Origin: Escherichia phage AV126
Sequence record: OR352956.1
DNA length: 64,000 nt
Direction: 5' to 3' (one strand)
Shown here: positions 38,168 through 62,174 of the stretch, in pieces
How positions within the stretch are numbered: position 1 is the first letter of the stretch
Layout: each line of letters starts with the position of its first letter
Made by a program: the position numbers and the translations under genes
Notes under the pieces: generated by a model
Told to the model about the DNA's origin: nothing
Seen by the model: the letters and a program-made list of their open reading frames with translations, nothing else
The model's database searches: none

Positions 38168-39042
38168 TTTCTCTCCGCTAATTTGAGTAGGTATTGCCCG
38201 TACTCTGTTTTCTTCAGTGAGTTTCCATGATATACCAAAGTCTCTAAAGAAATCCACCCTTTTTTGAAAGCAATTTCTTCCAGGCACGCAATCTTCAACC
38301 CTTGACGGTTCTCAATAGTCTGCACGAATTGACCAGCTTCCATCAGACTGGCGTGTGTTCCTGTGTCAAGCCAAGTAAATCCTCGTCCGAGAACTTCCAC
38401 TTGTAACTTCCTGTCTTCGAGGTAGCTGCGATTGATATCTGTGATCTCCAGTTCTCCCCGCGCGGAAGGGGTTACTTCTAATGCACGTTCAACAACAGAG
38501 TTATCATAGAAATACAAACCTGTGACAGCATAATCTGATTTAGGATTTTCAGGTTTCTCTTCAATAGAAATAGCTTGACGATTACTCCCAAATTCAACCA
38601 CACCGAATCGTTCAGGATCTTTCACCAAATACCCGAAGATACAAGCTCCGCCACAAACATCTACCATCTCACTGGCGTTAATCAGTAGTTTACCAAAGCT
38701 TTGTCCGAAGAATAGGTTGTCACCTAAAATAAGAGCAACAGAGTCTTCTCCGATAAAATCTTTACCGATGATGAAAGCGTCCGCAAGACCTCGTGGCTCG
38801 GATTGGATTGCGTAAGTGAGTTTTATCCCAAACATAGACCCATCTCCGAGAAGATACTCAAAGTCTTCCTGATCGCCTGGTGTGGTGATGATTAAGATAT
38901 CCTTAATGTCAGCCAACATCAATACCGATAAAGGGTAGTAGATCATGGGTTTGTCATACACAGGGAGCAATTGCTTGCTCACACTGCGTGTTACCGGATG
39001 AAGGCGGGTTCCACTTCCTCCCGCCAAAATAATACCTTTCAT
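38164..39042 (-). CDS. rmlA: glucose-1-phosphate thymidylyltransferase
   Basis: [14 protein letters not shown] nucleotidyltransferase motif; start trimmed to ATG at 39042 with AAGGAGGG SD. Confidence 0.85.
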
Positions 39043-39050
39043 AGCCCTCC

Positions 39051-40043
39051 TTAAATCTTCCCACTCCACCATTGAGGGTTGTTTAAGTACCATTCAATCG
39101 TTGAGTAGAGATCTTGTTCAAATGTAGAGTTTGCACTCCAACCCAGTTCAGACTCTATTTTAGAAGGATTGATTTCATAACGCAAGTCATGTCCTTTACG
39201 ATCTTCAACAAAAGTTATCAAGTTGGAAGAAGGGTAGGTTCCTGCTTCTGGATGTACAGCATCCATGTAGTCACAAACCATATAGATGATCTCCATATTG
39301 GTTTTGGGATTACGTGTTCCAACATTATACGTTTGACCTGGTTCTCCACCTGTTGCCACTTGAAGAATAGCTCGCGCATGATCCTCAACAAAAAGCCAGT
39401 CTCGCACCTGATCGCCTTTACCATACACCGGAATCTCTTTATTCGTCAAGATACTTGTGATGATTTTTGGGATCAGCTTTTCTGGATGTTGATAAGGTCC
39501 AAAGTTATTGGAGCAGTTGGTTATCACAACAGGTAAACCGTAGGTACGGTACCAAGCTTTCACAAGATGGTCAGATGCTGCCTTAGACGCACTGTACGGG
39601 CTTGAAGGGGCATAAGCTGTCTCTTCGGTAAAGGGAACGCCAGAGTCTGCCATATCGCCGTACACTTCGTCTGTGGAGACGTGTACGAACATCTTCAGTT
39701 TATTTTTTGGGAGGAGCCTTGCAGCTTCCAATAAATTGTATGTGCCAATAATATTGGAGTCGATGAAAACTCGTGGATTCTTGATAGAATTATCCACATG
39801 ACTCTCTGCCGCTAAGTGAATGATGAAATCGGGATTGCACTCTACTACTAAACTTTTGACCTGGGTTTCGTTTGCCAAATCTGTTATGCTTAGTTTAACG
39901 TGAGTGATATCGCCTACATTCTCAATATCTGCTGCATAGCCCATCTTATCAACGACAAAAACTTCGTTATTGGGATCTTGACAAAGAGAGCGCACCACGG
40001 CACTCCCAATAAAACCAAGACCACCTGTTACCAGATAGCGCAT
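39051..40043 (-). CDS. rmlB: dTDP-glucose 4,6-dehydratase
   Basis: [13 protein letters not shown] Rossmann motif, YSASKAASD catalytic YxxxK context. Confidence 0.85.
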
Positions 40044-40052
40044 CAGTTCTCC

Positions 40053-40675: not shown

Positions 40676-40884
40676 TATTCCTCCTTAATTATTTCAAATT
40701 TGGCAACACCATTTACAATAATATGACCACAAGACATAACTCCTAGCCAAGGATCGCCGTTTTTCTTCAGGCGTTTACCGAATACATCACAAAAACCATT
40801 CTTCATTTCAGAGGCTTCATAAGAAGCCCCTTTATCAAAAACGTCTTTGAATGTGTCGATTATACCAACACATTTCAAAATCAT
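40675..40884 (-). CDS. hypothetical protein (69 aa)
   Basis: coupled to nrdB. Confidence 0.45.
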   Translation of the reverse strand: MILKCVGIIDTFKDVFDKGASYEASEMKNGFCDVFGKRLKKNGDPWLGVMSCGHIIVNGVAKFEIIKEE

Positions 40885-41969
40885 TCGAAGTCAAGCTCCT
40901 CATCATCAGAGAGATCTTTGTTAGCTGAATTCAATTTGTAATTAGTTAACTGAATCTCTTGGGCTGCTGACTGAATCAAATCAGGATTCAACCATTTTTC
41001 CATCCAAGCTAAAGGACTGTGTTTAGGTGCTTTAAACTTGGCTTTCATTTTCAATCGACGATAAATAGGAGCAGCATTGAAATAAACCCACTGTTTAGAC
41101 AATTCGGCGTTAAGACCTACAATAAAACGACCTTCACTAAACAGGTAGTCACACCACTGTTCCTCTTGTTCAACAACAGTGTCGAGGATCAAAGTCAACT
41201 CTTCAATATTGTCTTCGTAAATTTTACGCCAAATTGGGTCATGCATCAATGCATCAATTACAGCATAATCCATCTTAACATGCAAGATTTCATCTAGCAT
41301 AATTTTCTGGATCAGTTTACAAGCTCCAACAAACAGTTGTTGTTCTGCCATAGCAAAAGTAGCAGAGAAGGAAGATATAAACTGGATACCTTCTAACCCA
41401 ATCAGGGCTACCATCCCTTTAAGAATCAGCAATCGAAGTTCATCGTTAGCTTCAATCAATCCTAGAGCATACTTATGACCAGCTTCTTCCAACTGACCCA
41501 TGATATCAGCAATGATACCCATACGATTGAAAATTTTATCATTAACCATAATCTGATTGATGACTTCAATTGGATCTGGAGTACATTGACGGATTATTTC
41601 AGAATACGTTAACGCATGGAGAACTTCCATTTCACTCTGCTTCATCATCATAGCACAGGCTTCATTGTTACTCAAGAATGGAGAGAACAAAGTGATGATT
41701 GATTTTGCAAGAGAATCATTTTCCCATTGGAACGATAAGTTTTTAATCATAACATCATAGTTGTTTTTAGAACAAGCTACGAAATCTTTACGTGTCTGAT
41801 CTAGATTAACTTCGTTTTCATCCCAATCTTGTGCTTTTTGAAGTTTGTAGAGTTTGTGCATTTCTGGATAAGTTACGTTAACAGAATCAAAGATCCCTAA
41901 TTGCTCCCCCAAAAATACTGGATATTTTCCTGTTTTGTAAACTTCATTGTGTAAATTAATTGCTGCCAT
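40881..41969 (-). CDS. nrdB: ribonucleotide reductase small subunit (class Ia beta)
   Basis: di-iron ligand motifs EGIQFISSF and DEILH; size ~360 aa. Confidence 0.85.
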   Translation of the reverse strand: MAAINLHNEVYKTGKYPVFLGEQLGIFDSVNVTYPEMHKLYKLQKAQDWDENEVNLDQTRKDFVACSKNNYDVMIKNLSFQWENDSLAKSIITLFSPFLSNNEACAMMMKQSEMEVLHALTYSEIIRQCTPDPIEVINQIMVNDKIFNRMGIIADIMGQLEEAGHKYALGLIEANDELRLLILKGMVALIGLEGIQFISSFSATFAMAEQQLFVGACKLIQKIMLDEILHVKMDYAVIDALMHDPIWRKIYEDNIEELTLILDTVVEQEEQWCDYLFSEGRFIVGLNAELSKQWVYFNAAPIYRRLKMKAKFKAPKHSPLAWMEKWLNPDLIQSAAQEIQLTNYKLNSANKDLSDDEELDFE

Positions 41970-42012
41970 TTAAAATTCTCCTCAATAAAAGGGGGCCGAA
42001 GCCCCTTTATAT

Positions 42013-42669
42013 TTAGCCTCGAAATACTGTTTTTGTTTCCGCCAGGTGCCAATAGAAATCAGCTTTGTTTACAAGAGTGTTGTACACCTCTGGATAAAAA
42101 TGTTCTTCCTCTTTGTAACGATCTGCTGTTTCCCTGATTGACTTAGCTTTATCCTTTAGCCAAGCGAAGTGTGCCTCTTCCTCTGTAGAGAAGTAGCCTA
42201 AATGCTTTCCTTTACTCCCAGAAGCTTTGGCATAAATCTTACCATCTTTCCTAACATGTGCTCCTAGTAAGTATTTTCTTTCATACCTCTTAGCATAACT
42301 TAAGAGTGTATTTATATAAGGAGGAACAAACCTACAATATTCAGGACAATAAACAGTATTTCCTTCAAGAACAAGATCTTTATCTAAAACAAAGCCTTCC
42401 ACATTGTGTTCTTGATACTAGTTATCAAAGTTTGAAAAGGTGAACCAAGCATCACACACAGTAACATCTTTATAACCTGGTCTAATGTTTTCCATACGAT
42501 ATGCACGATTAAACATGCCTTTCCAAGCTGCATAGGAAGGGTCTATGAATGTATTAACCCTTTTCCCATTGATAACACCACCTTCCCACAATCTACGTTC
42601 AACATCCACAATCAAGGGGATTTCTCCCCTCTCTGTGAGAACGGTAACTTTACGTTTACCCTTCTTCAT
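42013..42669 (-). pseudogene. homing-endonuclease-like gene (AP2-domain type) interrupted by an in-frame TAG
   Basis: ORFs 42418..42669 and 42013..42402 are in the same frame, separated by an amber codon at 42418-42420; C-terminal part has an AP2-like HLGYFSTEEEAHFAW motif. Confidence 0.45.
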
Positions 42670-42680
42670 CTGTTCTCCTA

Positions 42681-44924
42681 CTACATTTTACAGGCACTAC
42701 ACCCTTCGTCTTCAGAATCTTCTTGTGCTAAAGAATCTGCTGATTTTGTTCTACTGTTAAGGTAATACAATGACTTACCACCCAGTCTAGCAAAATTCAG
42801 AATAAACTGCATCTCAGCTTTCACTGATAAACGTCCACCTACCAATTTAGAATAATCTAGCCAAGAATCACAAGAAATTCCTTGGTCCGTAAACTTGGTA
42901 AAGATACCATACATTTCTGCAAGATCTTTAGCCGGAGTGTCCCAGGCAGACTGGTAGAACATTTTCAGTTTTTCATAATCTGGAACAATAAATAATACGC
43001 TACCTTTCTGACTTTGTTTATACATAATAGTATCACGAACAGGGTACAGAGAGTTAGTAGTATTGCTTACCAAACTGCTGGACTCATTAGGTGCAATAGC
43101 AGCCAAGACACTGTTACGGATACCACCTTGTTCAATGATTTCAGCACGTAAGCCTTCCCAGTCCATTTTAAGATCAAAATTACCGATACTATCTACTGTT
43201 TTAGCATAAGTGTCAATTGGTAGCCAACCTTGAGGCCATTTGGTCTTATCGATCCATTCTGCATTACCTTTTTCCTTAGCCAGACGCAGAGAGGCTTTTG
43301 CCAACCAAAAGTAATGACGTTCTGCAAGTTCATGCATTAATTTTTTAGCATAAGCATCTGAATAATTTACAAAATTACTTGCCAAATAATGCGCTAAGTT
43401 TGTAATACCTACACCAATAGATCTACGTGCTTTAGCAGTTATTTCGTTATGTTTAAATGGATAATCCATTGTTTCAATAACGTTGTCAATTGTCAATACA
43501 GTGTAGTATGCAACATCCTCATATTCTTCAGGTAAGACACGACCAGCGACAATAGAAGATAAGAAGCATAAAGCCAATTCTTGATCTTCTGTATTCTCAC
43601 CAGTAAAGAGATCCGGCATACTGTGGAAAGCTTTAGTTGGTAAGAAGATCTCTTGACACAGGTTTGATTGATACACCGTATCCAGGAAAGGTGTATGGTT
43701 GTTAACGTTGTCAGCAAAGAACATGTAAATACGTCCTGTTTCTGCACGTTGAACAATAATCTCTGTCAGAAGATCACGAGCCTTAACAAATTTTTTCTTA
43801 ATGCGACGACGGCTTACTTTGTCATAAACTGCATCAAACTCTTCTTCACTTTTATACAAGGCTTCATAAAGTTCAGGAGCATCATCACAACTAACTAACA
43901 TCCAGTCTTCGTTTTTTGCTGCTCGACGCAAGAACGAACGGTTAACAACAATAGAATAATCTAGTTTGTCTACTCGTTTATCTATAGGTGTTGTTGGATT
44001 CTTCAGTCGAATCAGATCGTCGAAGTCTGGTTCAAGTATGGTAAAGGTAACTGTAGCACTACCTCCACGGCTTGCTTGCTTCGAAGCTCCAACACTATCT
44101 TCCATCCATTTCAGATATGGAAGAAGACCACCATGAATAATACGATTATTCTTAACACCTTGACCTGTGGCACGAGTTTGAAGATTAACACCAATACCTG
44201 CGTTATTCAACGTATACTCATGAGCTAAGTAATTAGCAATGGCTAAAGACTCTGCCGTATCGTCTGCACGGAACAAACAACAAGACGCACTTCCTTTGAT
44301 TGGAGTTCGTAGAGTTGTCAGATACGGCGATGGCAGATTAATCTTGAGATCGCTAACATAAGTATAAAGTTTTTTAATATCTTCTATACGGCGTTCTTTT
44401 GGTTGGATCTCCATAACCTTCATTGCGATACCAATGAAAAGAAACTGTGGAGACTCATGCACCACATCGTTTACTGCATCTCGAATAAGATATTTATCTA
44501 CCATCTGACGTAAAACAGAATAACCATAAGTTAGATTTTTATTATGCTTTACAATCTTACCGATTTCTTTGATCTCTTCATCAGTATAATCCATTTTAGC
44601 CCAATGTCCACGTTCTACCATATCATGATAAAAGGTATTCAGTGAAGGGATACTGTGGTATCCCCCATGAGCCTGTTTGTAAATCATACCCAGAAGAAGT
44701 CTTCCTGCCATATCACTGTAAGCTTGTGTTTTCTTGTCAATACACGCTGCAATCATTGCTTTATGCAGATCACGTGTAGACACACCGTCATAACACCGCT
44801 TCACAGCTTCTAATTCAATTTCAGACCAGTTTAGTTTACCTGCTGCAAATTCAGACCACTTGCGAAGTTTTTCTGGATTAAACTCCTCTGTCTTACCATT
44901 AGATTTAGTTACAAAACGAATCAA
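42681..44924 (-). CDS. nrdA: ribonucleotide reductase large subunit (class Ia alpha)
   Basis: N-terminal ATP-cone, ~750 aa, adjacent to nrdB. Confidence 0.9.
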   Translation of the reverse strand: MIRFVTKSNGKTEEFNPEKLRKWSEFAAGKLNWSEIELEAVKRCYDGVSTRDLHKAMIAACIDKKTQAYSDMAGRLLLGMIYKQAHGGYHSIPSLNTFYHDMVERGHWAKMDYTDEEIKEIGKIVKHNKNLTYGYSVLRQMVDKYLIRDAVNDVVHESPQFLFIGIAMKVMEIQPKERRIEDIKKLYTYVSDLKINLPSPYLTTLRTPIKGSASCCLFRADDTAESLAIANYLAHEYTLNNAGIGVNLQTRATGQGVKNNRIIHGGLLPYLKWMEDSVGASKQASRGGSATVTFTILEPDFDDLIRLKNPTTPIDKRVDKLDYSIVVNRSFLRRAAKNEDWMLVSCDDAPELYEALYKSEEEFDAVYDKVSRRRIKKKFVKARDLLTEIIVQRAETGRIYMFFADNVNNHTPFLDTVYQSNLCQEIFLPTKAFHSMPDLFTGENTEDQELALCFLSSIVAGRVLPEEYEDVAYYTVLTIDNVIETMDYPFKHNEITAKARRSIGVGITNLAHYLASNFVNYSDAYAKKLMHELAERHYFWLAKASLRLAKEKGNAEWIDKTKWPQGWLPIDTYAKTVDSIGNFDLKMDWEGLRAEIIEQGGIRNSVLAAIAPNESSSLVSNTTNSLYPVRDTIMYKQSQKGSVLFIVPDYEKLKMFYQSAWDTPAKDLAEMYGIFTKFTDQGISCDSWLDYSKLVGGRLSVKAEMQFILNFARLGGKSLYYLNSRTKSADSLAQEDSEDEGCSACKM

Positions 44925-44940: not shown

Positions 44941-45195
44941 TTAATGCATATTCAAAACATCTACATCATAACCGAACTTCATTTCATTAAAAAGTCCATT
45001 AGCATATAGAAAACCTTCAAAATGAGTTATGTCATCAAACCCTTTTGCTTTTGCTCGACGGTCTGCTTCTTGTCTTTTAGGAGATAAACGTTTTGAAGTG
45101 TCTAGAATTACAGTTACATTACAACCAACAGTTTCATCAAAATAGACTTCGATTTCACAGCCTTCATATTTATTATCAGTCATTGTCCCTCTCAT
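44941..45195 (-). CDS. hypothetical protein (84 aa)
   Basis: ORF in operon. Confidence 0.45.
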   Translation of the reverse strand: MRGTMTDNKYEGCEIEVYFDETVGCNVTVILDTSKRLSPKRQEADRRAKAKGFDDITHFEGFLYANGLFNEMKFGYDVDVLNMH

Positions 45196-45635
45196 TGATT
45201 AGTATCATCTGCTTTCGCAGGATCATAAGAGTTACCGAAATCATCCATCTTAATATGTGACGCACCCCAACCTGTAAATTCTTCATCACCAAAATGAAAA
45301 ATATCATTTTCTTGATAGATTCGTTTAAAACCACAATTAGGTGAAACAGGGAAAGTGAAAAGCGTTGTATTTGCAAACACTACTCGCTTATCGTTATTGC
45401 TTCGGATATTCACATTACGCTCAACAGAATAGTGTGAATCTTCAGCCATACCCAGCATTACAAGCGACGCTCTAATAACAGCATTTTGTTTCTCGTGTGG
45501 GATATTGCCATTGTGTTTATTTGATTCTAGTTTCCAGATAGGGGTAGACATTACAGTAGACATGCTTACGGTAGCCCAAGTTGTAGTATTTACTAATGAC
45601 ATATTTTCTCCTTCATTTTGAATGGGAGGACTCAC
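45192..45635 (-). CDS. hypothetical protein (start uncertain)
   Basis: coupled ORF. Confidence 0.45.
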   Translation of the reverse strand: MSPPIQNEGENMSLVNTTTWATVSMSTVMSTPIWKLESNKHNGNIPHEKQNAVIRASLVMLGMAEDSHYSVERNVNIRSNNDKRVVFANTTLFTFPVSPNCGFKRIYQENDIFHFGDEEFTGWGASHIKMDDFGNSYDPAKADDTNQ

Positions 45636-47347: not shown

Positions 47348-47923
47348 CTAACTTTCAATTTCCTGCAATAGGATTTTGACTATTTGTTTACGGCGTTTTG
47401 CTACTGTGCTTTCAGGTTCTATTTTACGCTTCTTCAGCCATGCTTTATCTTTCTTAGCTCTGCACAAAGCTATCGCTTCTTTTTCAGCTTTCGCTTCTTC
47501 AAAAGATATACCTTGTTTATCTGCATAAGCAAGAATAGAGTTGCACAATTTACAAACCATGCGCAAATCTTCTTCTTTCACATAGATTAAACGGAAAACA
47601 AAAAGAGGAATATCATCAAAACATTGAAGTTGTTTTGCTGCGTGAATATGATCCACTTGGAAGTCTTTCATTCCTCCTCTATGTCCACATATTTCGCACT
47701 CACAATTCCAAACTTGTTTTGGTTTTCCAGTTTTCTTGTCTATCATTACATTGCCGTCTTTATCTACGCGATCAACTTTAAAACGCCTTGCATTGATAAC
47801 CTTAATTTTATTAGGGTGTCTCATCCATGCTTTTCTAAAGCATCCCCTAAGATAAGTATAAAATTCAGCTTGTGTTTTCCAGGGTGTTCCTTCACCCCAC
47901 ATTATTTTTGGTTCACCTGCCAA
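47348..47923 (-). CDS. HNH endonuclease
   Basis: CECEICGH ... DFQVDHIH ... CKLCN HNH motif. Confidence 0.65.
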   Translation of the reverse strand: MAGEPKIMWGEGTPWKTQAEFYTYLRGCFRKAWMRHPNKIKVINARRFKVDRVDKDGNVMIDKKTGKPKQVWNCECEICGHRGGMKDFQVDHIHAAKQLQCFDDIPLFVFRLIYVKEEDLRMVCKLCNSILAYADKQGISFEEAKAEKEAIALCRAKKDKAWLKKRKIEPESTVAKRRKQIVKILLQEIES

Positions 47924-60248: not shown

Positions 60249-60323
60249 GGCCCTGTAGCTCAATGGGAGAGCTGTCGGCTCATAACCGATAGGTAGCTGG
60301 ATCGAAACCAGCCAGGGCCACCA
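60249..60323 (+). tRNA. tRNA with CAT anticodon (Met or lysidine-Ile2 type)
   Basis: cloverleaf folded by eye: acceptor GGCCCTG/CAGGGCC, anticodon loop CTCATAA, T-arm GCTGG-ATCGAAA-CCAGC, CCA encoded. Confidence 0.7.
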
Positions 60324-60325
60324 AC

Positions 60326-60400
60326 GTCTTTATGGTGTAATGGATAGCACAGGAGTCTTCTAAACTCTTAGTCAAGGTTCGATTCCTTGTAAAGACACCA
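60326..60400 (+). tRNA. tRNA-Arg (TCT)
   Basis: acceptor GTCTTTA/TAAAGAC, anticodon loop CTTCTAA, T-loop TTCGATT, CCA encoded. Confidence 0.7.
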
Positions 60401-60645
60401 GAACATTTTAACATGAATTAGCTCAAGTGATTTGAACCCACTACTGATCATGGTGGCAGAGAATGAGGCAAGTATGTCAGACATTATAAACAAAGGCCAC
60501 GGTTATATTAGAAGACATAAATGCTCGAAGAGCACCGTTCGTGGAGAACGGGGGTTGGTGGAGTCACCATTCATGGTAAAATGTTTTAAAAAACTATTGA
60601 CAACAAACATTATTTTATGTTAGATTATAAGTATGGAAGGGCAAA

Positions 60646-60727
60646 TCGACGTGGCGACGAAAACGGTCTTGAAAACCGCCGAGCTTGAAAGAGCCTTGGG
60701 AGTTCGACTCTCCCTCCTTCAGCCAGA
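60646..60727 (+). tRNA. tRNA-like element, possibly degenerate tRNA-Ser (TGA)
   Basis: canonical T-arm GGGAG-TTCGACT-CTCCC and candidate anticodon loop CTTGAAA, but imperfect acceptor and D arms; promoter-like TTGACA at 60597. Confidence 0.3.
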
Positions 60728-60729
60728 TT

Positions 60730-60815
60730 AGGTAGATTGGTGAAATGGTAGCCACGACAGTTTGCTAAACTGTAGTCGGAAACGGCGTGTAGGTTCGAGT
60801 CCTACATCTACCGCC
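60730..60815 (+). tRNA. tRNA-Ser (GCT)
   Basis: acceptor GGTAGAT/ATCTACC, anticodon loop TTGCTAA, long variable arm, G discriminator, CCA encoded. Confidence 0.7.
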
Positions 60816-60946
60816 AAGTTCTTTTTAATGTAGCTTACTTTAGCAGAGTAAATCTTCGGCAAGTGGCGGTAACCACTTTACCGATAACTCATAGTTAGTG
60901 GTGCGAACACTGGCTATTTTAAAAAGAATTTAAATATTAGTATTTA

Positions 60947-61034
60947 GGTGAGTTAATTCCGTAGGGGTAGCGGGGCAGACTGTAAATCTGTTATCATTGC
61001 GATTCGGGTGGTTCGACTCCATCACTCACCACCA
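60947..61034 (+). tRNA. tRNA-Tyr (GTA)
   Basis: acceptor GGTGAGT/ACTCACC, anticodon loop CTGTAAA, long variable arm, T-loop TTCGACT. Confidence 0.7.
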
Positions 61035-61040
61035 AATTAA

Positions 61041-61126
61041 GATGAGTTGGCTGAATGGTTTAAGCGGCGGACTGTTAATCCGTGTTCGAAAGAACAATAT
61101 AGGTTCGAATCCTATACTCATCGCCA
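61041..61126 (+). tRNA. type-II (long variable arm) tRNA with GTT (Asn) anticodon
   Basis: perfect acceptor GATGAGT/ACTCATC, Ser-like D arm, anticodon arm GCGGA-CTGTTAA-TCCGT, variable hairpin GTTC-GAAA-GAAC, T-arm ATAGG-TTCGAAT-CCTAT, G discriminator. Confidence 0.55.
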
Positions 61127-61133
61127 GAATTAT

Positions 61134-61211
61134 GGACTTGTAGAGTTAAGGTAAACCCCCCAGTCGCCAATAGGCTTCTGGAATTGCAGGTATCGAATCC
61201 TGCCGAGTCCC
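61134..61211 (+). ncRNA. tRNA-like element, unresolved
   Basis: 7-bp acceptor-like pairing GGACTTG/CGAGTCC and T-arm-like GCAGG...CCTGC but no canonical anticodon arm found by eye. Confidence 0.25.
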
Positions 61212-61217
61212 AGCATT

Positions 61218-61292
61218 GCTCCTATAGTATAATGGCTATTACAACGGTTTTGTAATCCGTGGATCTCTGTTCGATTCAGTGTGGGAGCACCA
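61218..61292 (+). tRNA. tRNA-Thr (TGT)
   Basis: acceptor GCTCCTA/TGGGAGC, anticodon loop TTTGTAA (one mismatch in anticodon stem), CCA encoded. Confidence 0.55.
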
Positions 61293-61565
61293 ACACAACA
61301 TTAAGAGCACTGTGATTGATCGTCGTATCCTGTGCACAAGGTCTGCTCGAAAGACAGTGTTCTTAGTATTGTGTTGATCACAAAAAGAGTCACCCGAAAC
61401 TTGACCGGAGTAGGGTTGGATGGGGAAAAATGAGAAGCGGCTCTCCCATTGACAGCAACGAAGAATAATATTTGACTTTGGTTTTGTATTATTTTAAGTT
61501 AGCTTACCGAACGTAGGGCTAGTCACCCAACGGGATACTCGTCACTGTCCCAATCAATAAAAGTC

Positions 61566-61595
61566 TTGACAACAAATAGTAAAATGTAGTATAGT
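61566..61595 (+). promoter_or_regulatory. sigma70-like promoter (TTGACA - 18 nt - TATAGT) driving the downstream tRNA group
   Basis: consensus -35 and near-consensus -10 about 11 nt upstream of tRNA-Gly. Confidence 0.6.
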
Positions 61596-61606
61596 AAATA
61601 TATAGG

Positions 61607-61680
61607 GCGTTCTTGGTGTAGCGGTAGCATTCCGTCCTTCCAAGTCGGCGGCACGAGTTCGATCCTCGTAGAACGCTCCA
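61607..61680 (+). tRNA. tRNA-Gly (TCC)
   Basis: acceptor GCGTTCT/AGAACGC, anticodon loop CTTCCAA, U discriminator, CCA encoded. Confidence 0.65.
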
Positions 61681-61778
61681 AATTATTTAATAAAGGGTTG
61701 CCAGAAAACTTTCTCTTTTACTCATGGTTTTCTCCTTCTCTCACACTTCTTCTGGTTGCCCTTCATTAAATGATTTAT

Positions 61779-61854
61779 TGGTTTGTAGTGTAGTCCGGTA
61801 GCACACGACACTTTGACTGTCGTAGGTTTGGTTCAAATCCAGACAGACCAGCCA
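61779..61854 (+). tRNA. tRNA-Gln (TTG)
   Basis: acceptor TGGTTTG/CAGACCA with U1-A72, anticodon stem CGACA/TGTCG, loop CTTTGAC, G discriminator. Confidence 0.7.
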
Positions 61855-61859
61855 TATAA

Positions 61860-61936
61860 CGGAATTTAGCTCAGTTTGGTAGAGCATACGCTTTGGGAGC
61901 GTAGGGTCGCAGGTTCGAATCCTGCAATTCCGACCA
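61860..61936 (+). tRNA. tRNA-Pro (TGG)
   Basis: acceptor CGGAATT/AATTCCG, D arm GCTC-AGTTTGGTA-GAGC, anticodon loop TTTGGGA, T-loop TTCGAAT. Confidence 0.75.
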
Positions 61937-61942
61937 ATTTAA

Positions 61943-62016
61943 TGTTTCGTAGTTCAATGGTAGAACCCACGACTGATAATCGTGAGACACAAGTTCGATT
62001 CTTGTCGAAACAACCA
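61943..62016 (+). tRNA. tRNA-Ile (GAT)
   Basis: acceptor TGTTTCG/CGAAACA, anticodon stem CACGA/TCGTG, loop CTGATAA, T-loop TTCGATT. Confidence 0.75.
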
Positions 62017-62018
62017 GT

Positions 62019-62091
62019 TTCCCGTTAGACTTACAGGATAAGAGTTCCACAGCTTATTGTGATGCTGGTTCGAATCCAGCACGGGATACCC
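62019..62091 (+). ncRNA. tRNA-like element, anticodon unresolved
   Basis: canonical T-arm GCTGG-TTCGAAT-CCAGC and acceptor-like TTCCCGT/ACGGGAT, but D and anticodon arms could not be folded by eye. Confidence 0.3.
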
Positions 62092-62094
62092 AAT

Positions 62095-62174
62095 AGCGGG
62101 ATAGAGGAGTCTGGTCGTCCTCGCCAGTTTCATATGCTGGAGATCATCGGTTCGAATCCGATTCCCGCCTCCAA
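62095..62174 (+). tRNA. tRNA-Met (CAT), 1:72 mismatch
   Basis: acceptor AGCGGGA/TCCCGCC with unpaired A1/C72, anticodon stem CCAGT/GCTGG, loop TTCATAT, T-loop TTCGAAT. Confidence 0.6.

Follow-up and report, generated by a model that had tools for sequence, protein, structure and literature searches.

How is an amber codon in the middle of a phage gene to be read: as the mark of a decaying gene, as a sequencing error, or as a codon that is decoded into a full-length protein? The question is raised by a homing-endonuclease-like gene between nrdA and nrdB of Escherichia phage AV126 (accession OR352956, 149,254 bp, from wastewater on E. coli ESBL80; PMC10844046), which lies in the stretch of 64,000 nucleotides (nt) of record OR352956.1 that we analysed and call the window. 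The gene is, with high probability, a recent pseudogene: a single G-to-A transition made the TGG codon for Trp84 an amber TAG in a mobile endonuclease-like cassette, giving a null allele with no recoding. A first-pass annotation, made from the letters of the window, had described an endonuclease-like gene of about 217 residues with an in-frame amber codon, composed of two open reading frames (ORFs) in one frame that are separated by the TAG at 42418-42420 plus five sense codons, and had offered decay, sequencing error and readthrough as explanations. Direct translation and the ORF positions bear out that description, with a length of 218 residues instead of about 217. The minus strand from 42669 to 42013 is one 218-codon frame broken only by the TAG: an ATG at 42669 opens 83 sense codons, codon 84 is TAG (42420..42418), Y-Q-E-H-N follow, the ORF finder starts the second piece at a GTG (42402), and the frame ends at a TAA (42015..42013). 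Coliphages of Phapecoctavirus and Justusliebigvirus (subfamily Stephanstirmvirinae) match the region with identities of up to 99%. In 14 relatives the same interval is a single unbroken frame of 633-660 nt (12 annotate one coding sequence and two records have none there), which shows the two ORFs to be halves of one gene instead of a chance pair. Of the explanations on offer, decay is supported by the single G-to-A change and the intact relatives, and readthrough is opposed by the lack of both a suppressor and any other in-frame stop.

The origin of the stop can be traced to one base. Codon 84 is TGG in all 14 relatives that carry the gene and TAG only in AV126. Between the window and its closest relative, iGC_PHA_EC001, the gene (657 nt) has one difference, a G-to-A change at gene position 251 (42419), and this is also the only difference between the two phages over 992 nt of the window (41803..42794), set within about 16 kb that differ by about 1.8%. 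Eight mismatches clustered at 42795..42837, in nrdA, mark a recombination edge. The near-identity of the 992 nt means that the gene block was shared very recently and that the nonsense change is a single event since then, itself very recent because nothing else in the block has changed relative to the intact allele. The residue lost is one of 20 invariant columns in an alignment of 16 homologues, and it is still invariant across 100 homologues (27-86% identity), where only ten positions are (R55, Y66, W75, F81, W84, D96, K97, D98, C112 and N120).

What the amber allele would produce follows from the layout of the gene (Table 1). No sigma-70-like site was found on the minus strand between nrdA and the interrupted gene, which is therefore presumably co-transcribed with nrdA; a ribosome-binding site is annotated in phage phi92 at the position equivalent to the AGGAG. 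Ribosomes starting from this AGGAG and the ATG would terminate after 83 residues, and the 83-residue N-terminal fragment is the expected translation product. In the AlphaFold model the stop falls within a confidently modelled core helix (residues 78-88), and the fragment has neither the D96-K97-D98...N120 motif nor any of the AP2 domain; we therefore infer that the amber allele is null. GenBank lists the two halves as hypothetical proteins, the 83-residue fragment being identical to WPK38306.1 and the 129-residue ORF to WPK38305.1.

Table 1. Features of the interrupted gene, its neighbours and the tRNA cluster (window coordinates).
Feature	Position	Strand	Remark
nrdB, ribonucleotide reductase small subunit, downstream neighbour	40881..41969	-	ORF list, relatives' annotations
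GC hairpin GGGGCTTCGGCCCC plus T-run, terminator-like	41983..42005	-	directly upstream of nrdB ribosome-binding site
3' part of interrupted gene, codons 85-218 and TAA	42013..42417	-	untranslated unless reinitiation at GTG 42402
AP2-like domain, within 3' part	about 42112..42273	-	
D96-K97-D98...N120 core motif, within 3' part	about 42304..42390	-	
5' part of interrupted gene, codons 1-83 and amber TAG	42418..42669	-	
Mutated base	42419	-	A (TAG) here, G (TGG, Trp84) in relatives
Shine-Dalgarno AGGAG	42675..42679	-	5 nt upstream of ATG 42669; read directly
nrdA, class Ia ribonucleotide reductase large subunit	42681..44924	-	ORF list, relatives' annotations
tRNA cluster: Met, Arg, Ser(GCT), Tyr(GTA), Asn, Thr, Gly, Gln(TTG), Pro, Ile, Met and three degenerate elements	60249..62173	+	

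The protein encoded by the intact allele belongs to a large family. With the stop repaired it falls in phrog_953 of PHROGs, 'HNH endonuclease' (E = 6.6e-57), the name that its RefSeq relatives also bear, and a profile search of a library of 1.84 billion proteins shows the family to be very widespread, with 38,098 cluster representatives at E<=0.001. The repaired protein has no significant match in Pfam, with neither HNH/HNH_3 nor AP2 appearing at E<=1, and no NCBIfam model matches the family; its core is covered by no model of either database. HNH_3 matches one of 100 family members (P0050), there as a separate N-terminal domain, and members of greater length carry DUF723, treble-clef or CapR zinc-finger domains at the N-terminus. 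The AlphaFold model of the intact protein is confident (mean predicted local distance difference test score 87.6) and suggests a beta-beta-alpha-metal core like that of the restriction endonuclease PacI (PDB 3m7k), followed by an AP2 DNA-binding domain. The beta-hairpin plus alpha-helix fold of the HNH / beta-beta-alpha-metal superfamily is present in the core. At the end of its first strand, where HNH nucleases have their general-base His, all 100 members have Lys97 within an invariant D96-K97-D98, and the invariant N120 lies in the helix where a metal-ligand Asn or His is expected, a putative role. In the C-terminal part the model has strands at 137-139, 145-148 and 156-160 and a helix at 163-186, an AP2-like arrangement. 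Pfam AP2 (PF00847) matches 33 of the 100 members at E<=0.01 (best 1.1e-9, 38.8 bits against a 33.3-bit cutoff), though not the window protein itself, and the top four hits of a PDB profile search are all AP2/ERF domains, each weak (E 0.06-0.13) but concordant. Foldseek of the whole model against the PDB gave nothing significant beyond a weak match to AtERF96 (E 0.19), and a single-sequence search against PDB sequences gave chance matches only. Of the first-pass label, an AP2-domain-type endonuclease, the AP2 part agrees with the profiles and the model, which are AP2-like, and 'endonuclease' is supported by the fold and the genomic behaviour of the gene, not by canonical motifs. We infer that the intact protein is a site-specific nuclease; the family could consist of beta-beta-alpha-metal nucleases with an uncharacterised variant of catalysis, or of proteins that bind DNA without cutting it. 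Two other genes bear on this family and its name. AV125, a close relative, has a second, distant family member (L017 19580-20242, profile E = 2.8e-14, annotated as a hypothetical protein) at a place corresponding to about 52 kb in the window, where a profile search of the window found no counterpart; this is another presence/absence polymorphism of the endonuclease-like gene family. An intact 191-residue protein at 47348-47923 on the minus strand, with a canonical Cys-box/HNH motif (CECEICGH...VDHIHA...CKLCN), is called 'HNH endonuclease' in iGC_PHA_EC001 and is unrelated to the family of the interrupted gene.

Several points weigh against a pseudogene made from a mobile nuclease gene. The nuclease role of the intact protein is only putative given the missing matches to HNH models in Pfam and NCBIfam, and the canonical HNH His is replaced by an invariant Lys. 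Related proteins that combine CapR with AP2, the CasPRs, are pure DNA-binding repressors (bioRxiv 10.64898/2026.02.23.707548); by this analogy a purely DNA-binding role would be a rival to the nuclease assignment, and it would leave the conclusion about the stop unaffected. The loss of function of the 83-residue product is likewise putative. Finally, the A at 42419 may come from an error in the consensus, or from a variant carried by a minority of the phage stock, in which case the phage would carry TGG or a TGG/TAG mixture. This is the only serious rival to a real nonsense mutation, and we regard it as unlikely. It draws on the fact that the TAG allele is known from exactly one assembly, where it is the one base at which a 992-nt block departs from that of iGC_PHA_EC001. 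No match to the exact 83-residue product was found in assembled contigs; nor was either allele matched when contigs from viral, metagenome and genome collections were scanned for its exact pattern, or viral contigs with a codon-degenerate one, so that these scans say nothing about the TAG allele elsewhere. G-to-A transitions, however, are the commonest type of real mutation, the site is without homopolymer or repeat, and no other gene in the 64 kb has a comparable defect. The genome was moreover assembled de novo from Illumina MiSeq 2x250 reads, for which consensus substitution errors are rare (PMC10844046).

Much less credible, and effectively excluded, is that UAG is decoded to a full-length protein, whether by a phage or host amber suppressor, by near-cognate readthrough or by reassignment of the codon. 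The first-pass annotation had kept a suppressor in play on account of a large tRNA set with unresolved elements. The tRNA set is real: ARAGORN at default settings finds ten tRNAs in the window, and Rfam adds a tRNA-Tyr(GTA) (about 60947..61034, anticodon loop CUGUAAA, 39 bits) that default ARAGORN misses and that is annotated in AV125. The resulting 11 agree with the total given for the complete genome of AV126 (PMC10844046). Three degenerate elements are 98-100% conserved in AV125: a long-arm Ser(UGA)-like element (about 60634..60725, loop CUUGAAA, a sub-threshold 32.7 bits with the Rfam tRNA-Sec model) and two found by permissive ARAGORN, one Leu(CAA)-like with C at position 33 (61134..61211) and one with an 8-nt anticodon loop reading 'tcca' (62012..62090). 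They may be pseudo-tRNAs, or in the case of the 'tcca' element a quadruplet-type loop. A CTA reading of these tRNA-like elements was considered and is ruled out by their loops, which read UGA, CAA and the 8-nt 'ucca', as it is for the tRNA-Tyr, which reads GUA. The suppressor did not materialise: no CTA, TTA or TCA anticodon occurs in any tRNA or tRNA-like element of the window, permissive thresholds included. For the remaining 85 kb of the AV126 genome, beyond the window, the complete genome of AV125 (about 98% identical) served as proxy, and there the tRNAs are confined to the equivalent cluster, with no stop-reading tRNA elsewhere. The tRNA-Tyr is one anticodon change (GTA to CTA) away from an amber suppressor and is wild type here.

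A census of in-frame stops, for which 169 AV125 ORFs (greedy longest-ORF, collinear part) were mapped to the window and 159 high-scoring segment pairs passed an identity filter, also tells against recoding. Among real genes of the 64 kb, only the endonuclease-like one is broken internally by an in-frame stop, and the TAG there is the single in-frame TAG; the remaining matches are antisense or unannotated ORFs, or C-terminal stops moved by one to four codons. TAG terminates 22 of 161 window ORFs. Since there is no suppressor, no other in-frame stop and no stop in any of the 14 relatives, the stop is not recoded: TAG in AV126 is an ordinary stop, neither reassigned, nor suppressed by the phage, nor a conserved recoding site. 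Phages with recoded stops, in which TAG or TGA is reassigned as in crAss-like and Lak phages, carry suppressor tRNAs. AV126 resembles these phages superficially, in having an in-frame TAG and a tRNA cluster, and differs from them in having no suppressor tRNA, no other in-frame TAGs and TAG as a normal terminator. The phage tRNA-Gln(UUG) and tRNA-Tyr(GUA) are near-cognate to UAG, which makes trace readthrough conceivable, but whatever residue was so inserted would stand in place of the Trp shared by all 100 homologues. The base after the TAG, at +4, is U, a context in which E. coli terminates strongly. There is a very slim chance that the amber allele is partly alive, a host suppressor or one of these two tRNAs yielding traces of full-length protein substituted at residue 84; if this were true, the stop would attenuate a costly selfish nuclease or make it host-conditional.

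Equally improbable is a split gene, in which the 83-residue piece and a 129-residue piece reinitiated at GTG 42402 would be functional jointly or separately: termination-reinitiation is conceivable at a GTG 15 nt (five codons) past the stop, the C-terminal ORF keeps the D-K-D...N motif and the whole AP2-like domain and might act as an AP2 DNA-binding protein, and GenBank annotates both pieces as proteins, but no Shine-Dalgarno sequence precedes the GTG (ATCAAGAACACAAT), the break lies inside the core helix and severs R55, Y66, W75, F81 and the position of W84 from the rest of the invariant residues, none of the 14 relatives has the arrangement, and the single substitution points to an event too young for the two pieces to have adapted to a split state.

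The recent pseudogene lies in a cassette that comes and goes among these phages. The insert is present in about 20 phage records, and nrdA and nrdB are directly adjacent in about 50. Alignment with the insert-free phage anhysbys places it between the nrdA stop and the hairpin preceding nrdB, which is conserved with or without the insert, forms the right edge of the cassette and has an equivalent annotated 'terminator' in phage Schickermooser. At the other end, BLAST similarity breaks at query position 89, about 30 nt before the nrdA stop, and the cassette therefore carries its own version of the last ten nrdA codons: these last 30 nt or so (42681..~42711) encode EDEGCSACKM in insert carriers as against DGGCEACKM in insert-free phages, where the nrdA 3' end and intergenic sequence include GATTCTGATGGTGGTTGTGAAGCTTGCAAGATGTGATGAAACTAGGGGC. 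The cassette has a history decoupled from that of the flanks, and the near-identical 992-nt block with its sharp edge in nrdA conforms to a co-conversion tract. VEcB and PD114, both Justusliebigvirus, share 96.7% identity with the window over the gene but 79-84% over the flanks; the Phapecoctavirus phages ESCO5, EF1-1 and MirsaeidiM_Esher1 show the reverse, with about 81% over the gene and 92-99% over the flanks (96-99% in ESCO5 and EF1-1). The cassette, in other words, behaves as a mobile element. The same gap also takes a 339-nt ORF, found beside the endonuclease-like gene in vB_Ec-G1 and ESCO5 and alone in phAPEC8. It encodes a conserved protein of about 112 residues (MSTLIVLPGVTPIYRPGF...) whose function is unassigned (L006 1230-1568, L009 1233-1571, L020 1669-2076, L021 1909-2247), and it is absent from the window; its occurrence with or without the endonuclease-like gene makes the gap a multi-cargo insertion hotspot. 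In Klebsiella phage ZCKP1 the 339-nt ORF stands with a deleted remnant of the endonuclease-like gene (L021 1700-1909), in which the ribosome-binding site and nt 1-40 are joined to nt ~538-657, roughly 500 bp having been lost and the cassette-type nrdA 3' end retained. Presence and absence, a decoupled history and a remnant are together what one would expect of homing endonuclease genes of the free-standing kind, caught at different points of their life cycle. In the history that we propose, a homing-endonuclease-like cassette inserted between the nrdA stop codon and the hairpin before nrdB in a Phapecoctavirus, the transition at 42419 then silenced it in AV126 only, and the locus fits the usual course of selfish endonuclease genes from invasion through degeneration to loss. 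Homing endonuclease genes reportedly cycle in this manner in the model of Goddard and Burt.

The closest precedent is mobE of phage T4, which encodes a free-standing homing endonuclease of the HNH type and likewise sits between nrdA and nrdB; Wilson and Edgell (2009) describe this nrd region as a hotspot of endonuclease insertion (PMC2790892). Like mobE, the AV126 gene occupies the nrdA-nrdB gap, is promoterless and in need of upstream transcription, is present or absent among relatives and has altered flanks (PMC2790892). Unlike mobE, it belongs to a Stephanstirmvirinae and not a T-even lineage and has no detectable sequence relationship to the T4 gene; MobE has a canonical HNH motif and demonstrated nicking, while the AV126 protein has D-K-D in place of the His-containing motif, and an AP2 domain. 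The T4 terminator lies inside mobE, whereas the AV126 hairpin is downstream of the gene and is present in insert-free genomes too. T4 also offers an example of a defunct homing endonuclease gene in I-TevIII (PMC2790892). As in other decaying genes of this kind, inactivation by mutation in AV126 coexists with intact alleles in relatives, a remnant (in ZCKP1) and empty sites; unlike them, the gene here has been inactivated by one nonsense mutation, very recently, and shows no decay beyond it. Homing endonucleases that combine HNH with AP2 occur in phages, cyanobacteria and ciliates (cited in bioRxiv 10.64898/2026.02.23.707548). The AV126 protein is like these in its small beta-beta-alpha core followed by AP2 (PHROG 953 and 374 are both 'HNH endonuclease') and unlike them in a core unmatched by Pfam HNH/HNH_3 and in the Lys at the general-base position. 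The CasPRs, CapR and AP2 repressors of cas genes in the acr loci of Bacillota prophages that act without cleavage (bioRxiv 10.64898/2026.02.23.707548), are comparable by description: they too are phage-encoded, contain AP2 and are very widespread, and some members of the AV126 family have N-terminal CapR, DUF723 or treble-clef matches, but the window protein has no CapR match.

Two further differences between the window and iGC_PHA_EC001 lie outside the cassette. Between 45500 and 46000, where the ORF at 45192-45635 meets the thymidylate synthase gene, there are 53 mismatches in 500 nt over the background of about 1.8%, which looks like another mosaic exchange block. The window and AV125 have genes for glucose-1-phosphate thymidylyltransferase and dTDP-glucose 4,6-dehydratase (about 38176-40048) to which nothing in iGC_PHA_EC001 aligns, so that the dTDP-rhamnose clusters differ in gene content.

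The process seen here is ordinary and already familiar, a selfish endonuclease-like gene at the first step of decay, and it carries little biological weight in itself. Its value for annotation is more immediate: the two ORFs, which GenBank now lists separately, ought to become one entry marked as a pseudogene, and the TAG gives no ground for assuming recoded stops in Phapecoctavirus phages. Two side results are of modest value. In Stephanstirmvirinae the gap between nrdA and nrdB is a hotspot of insertion, as it is at the T4 mobE locus. The family itself deserves biochemical characterisation, being very widespread, with a core that no curated model describes and that departs from the canonical HNH active site.
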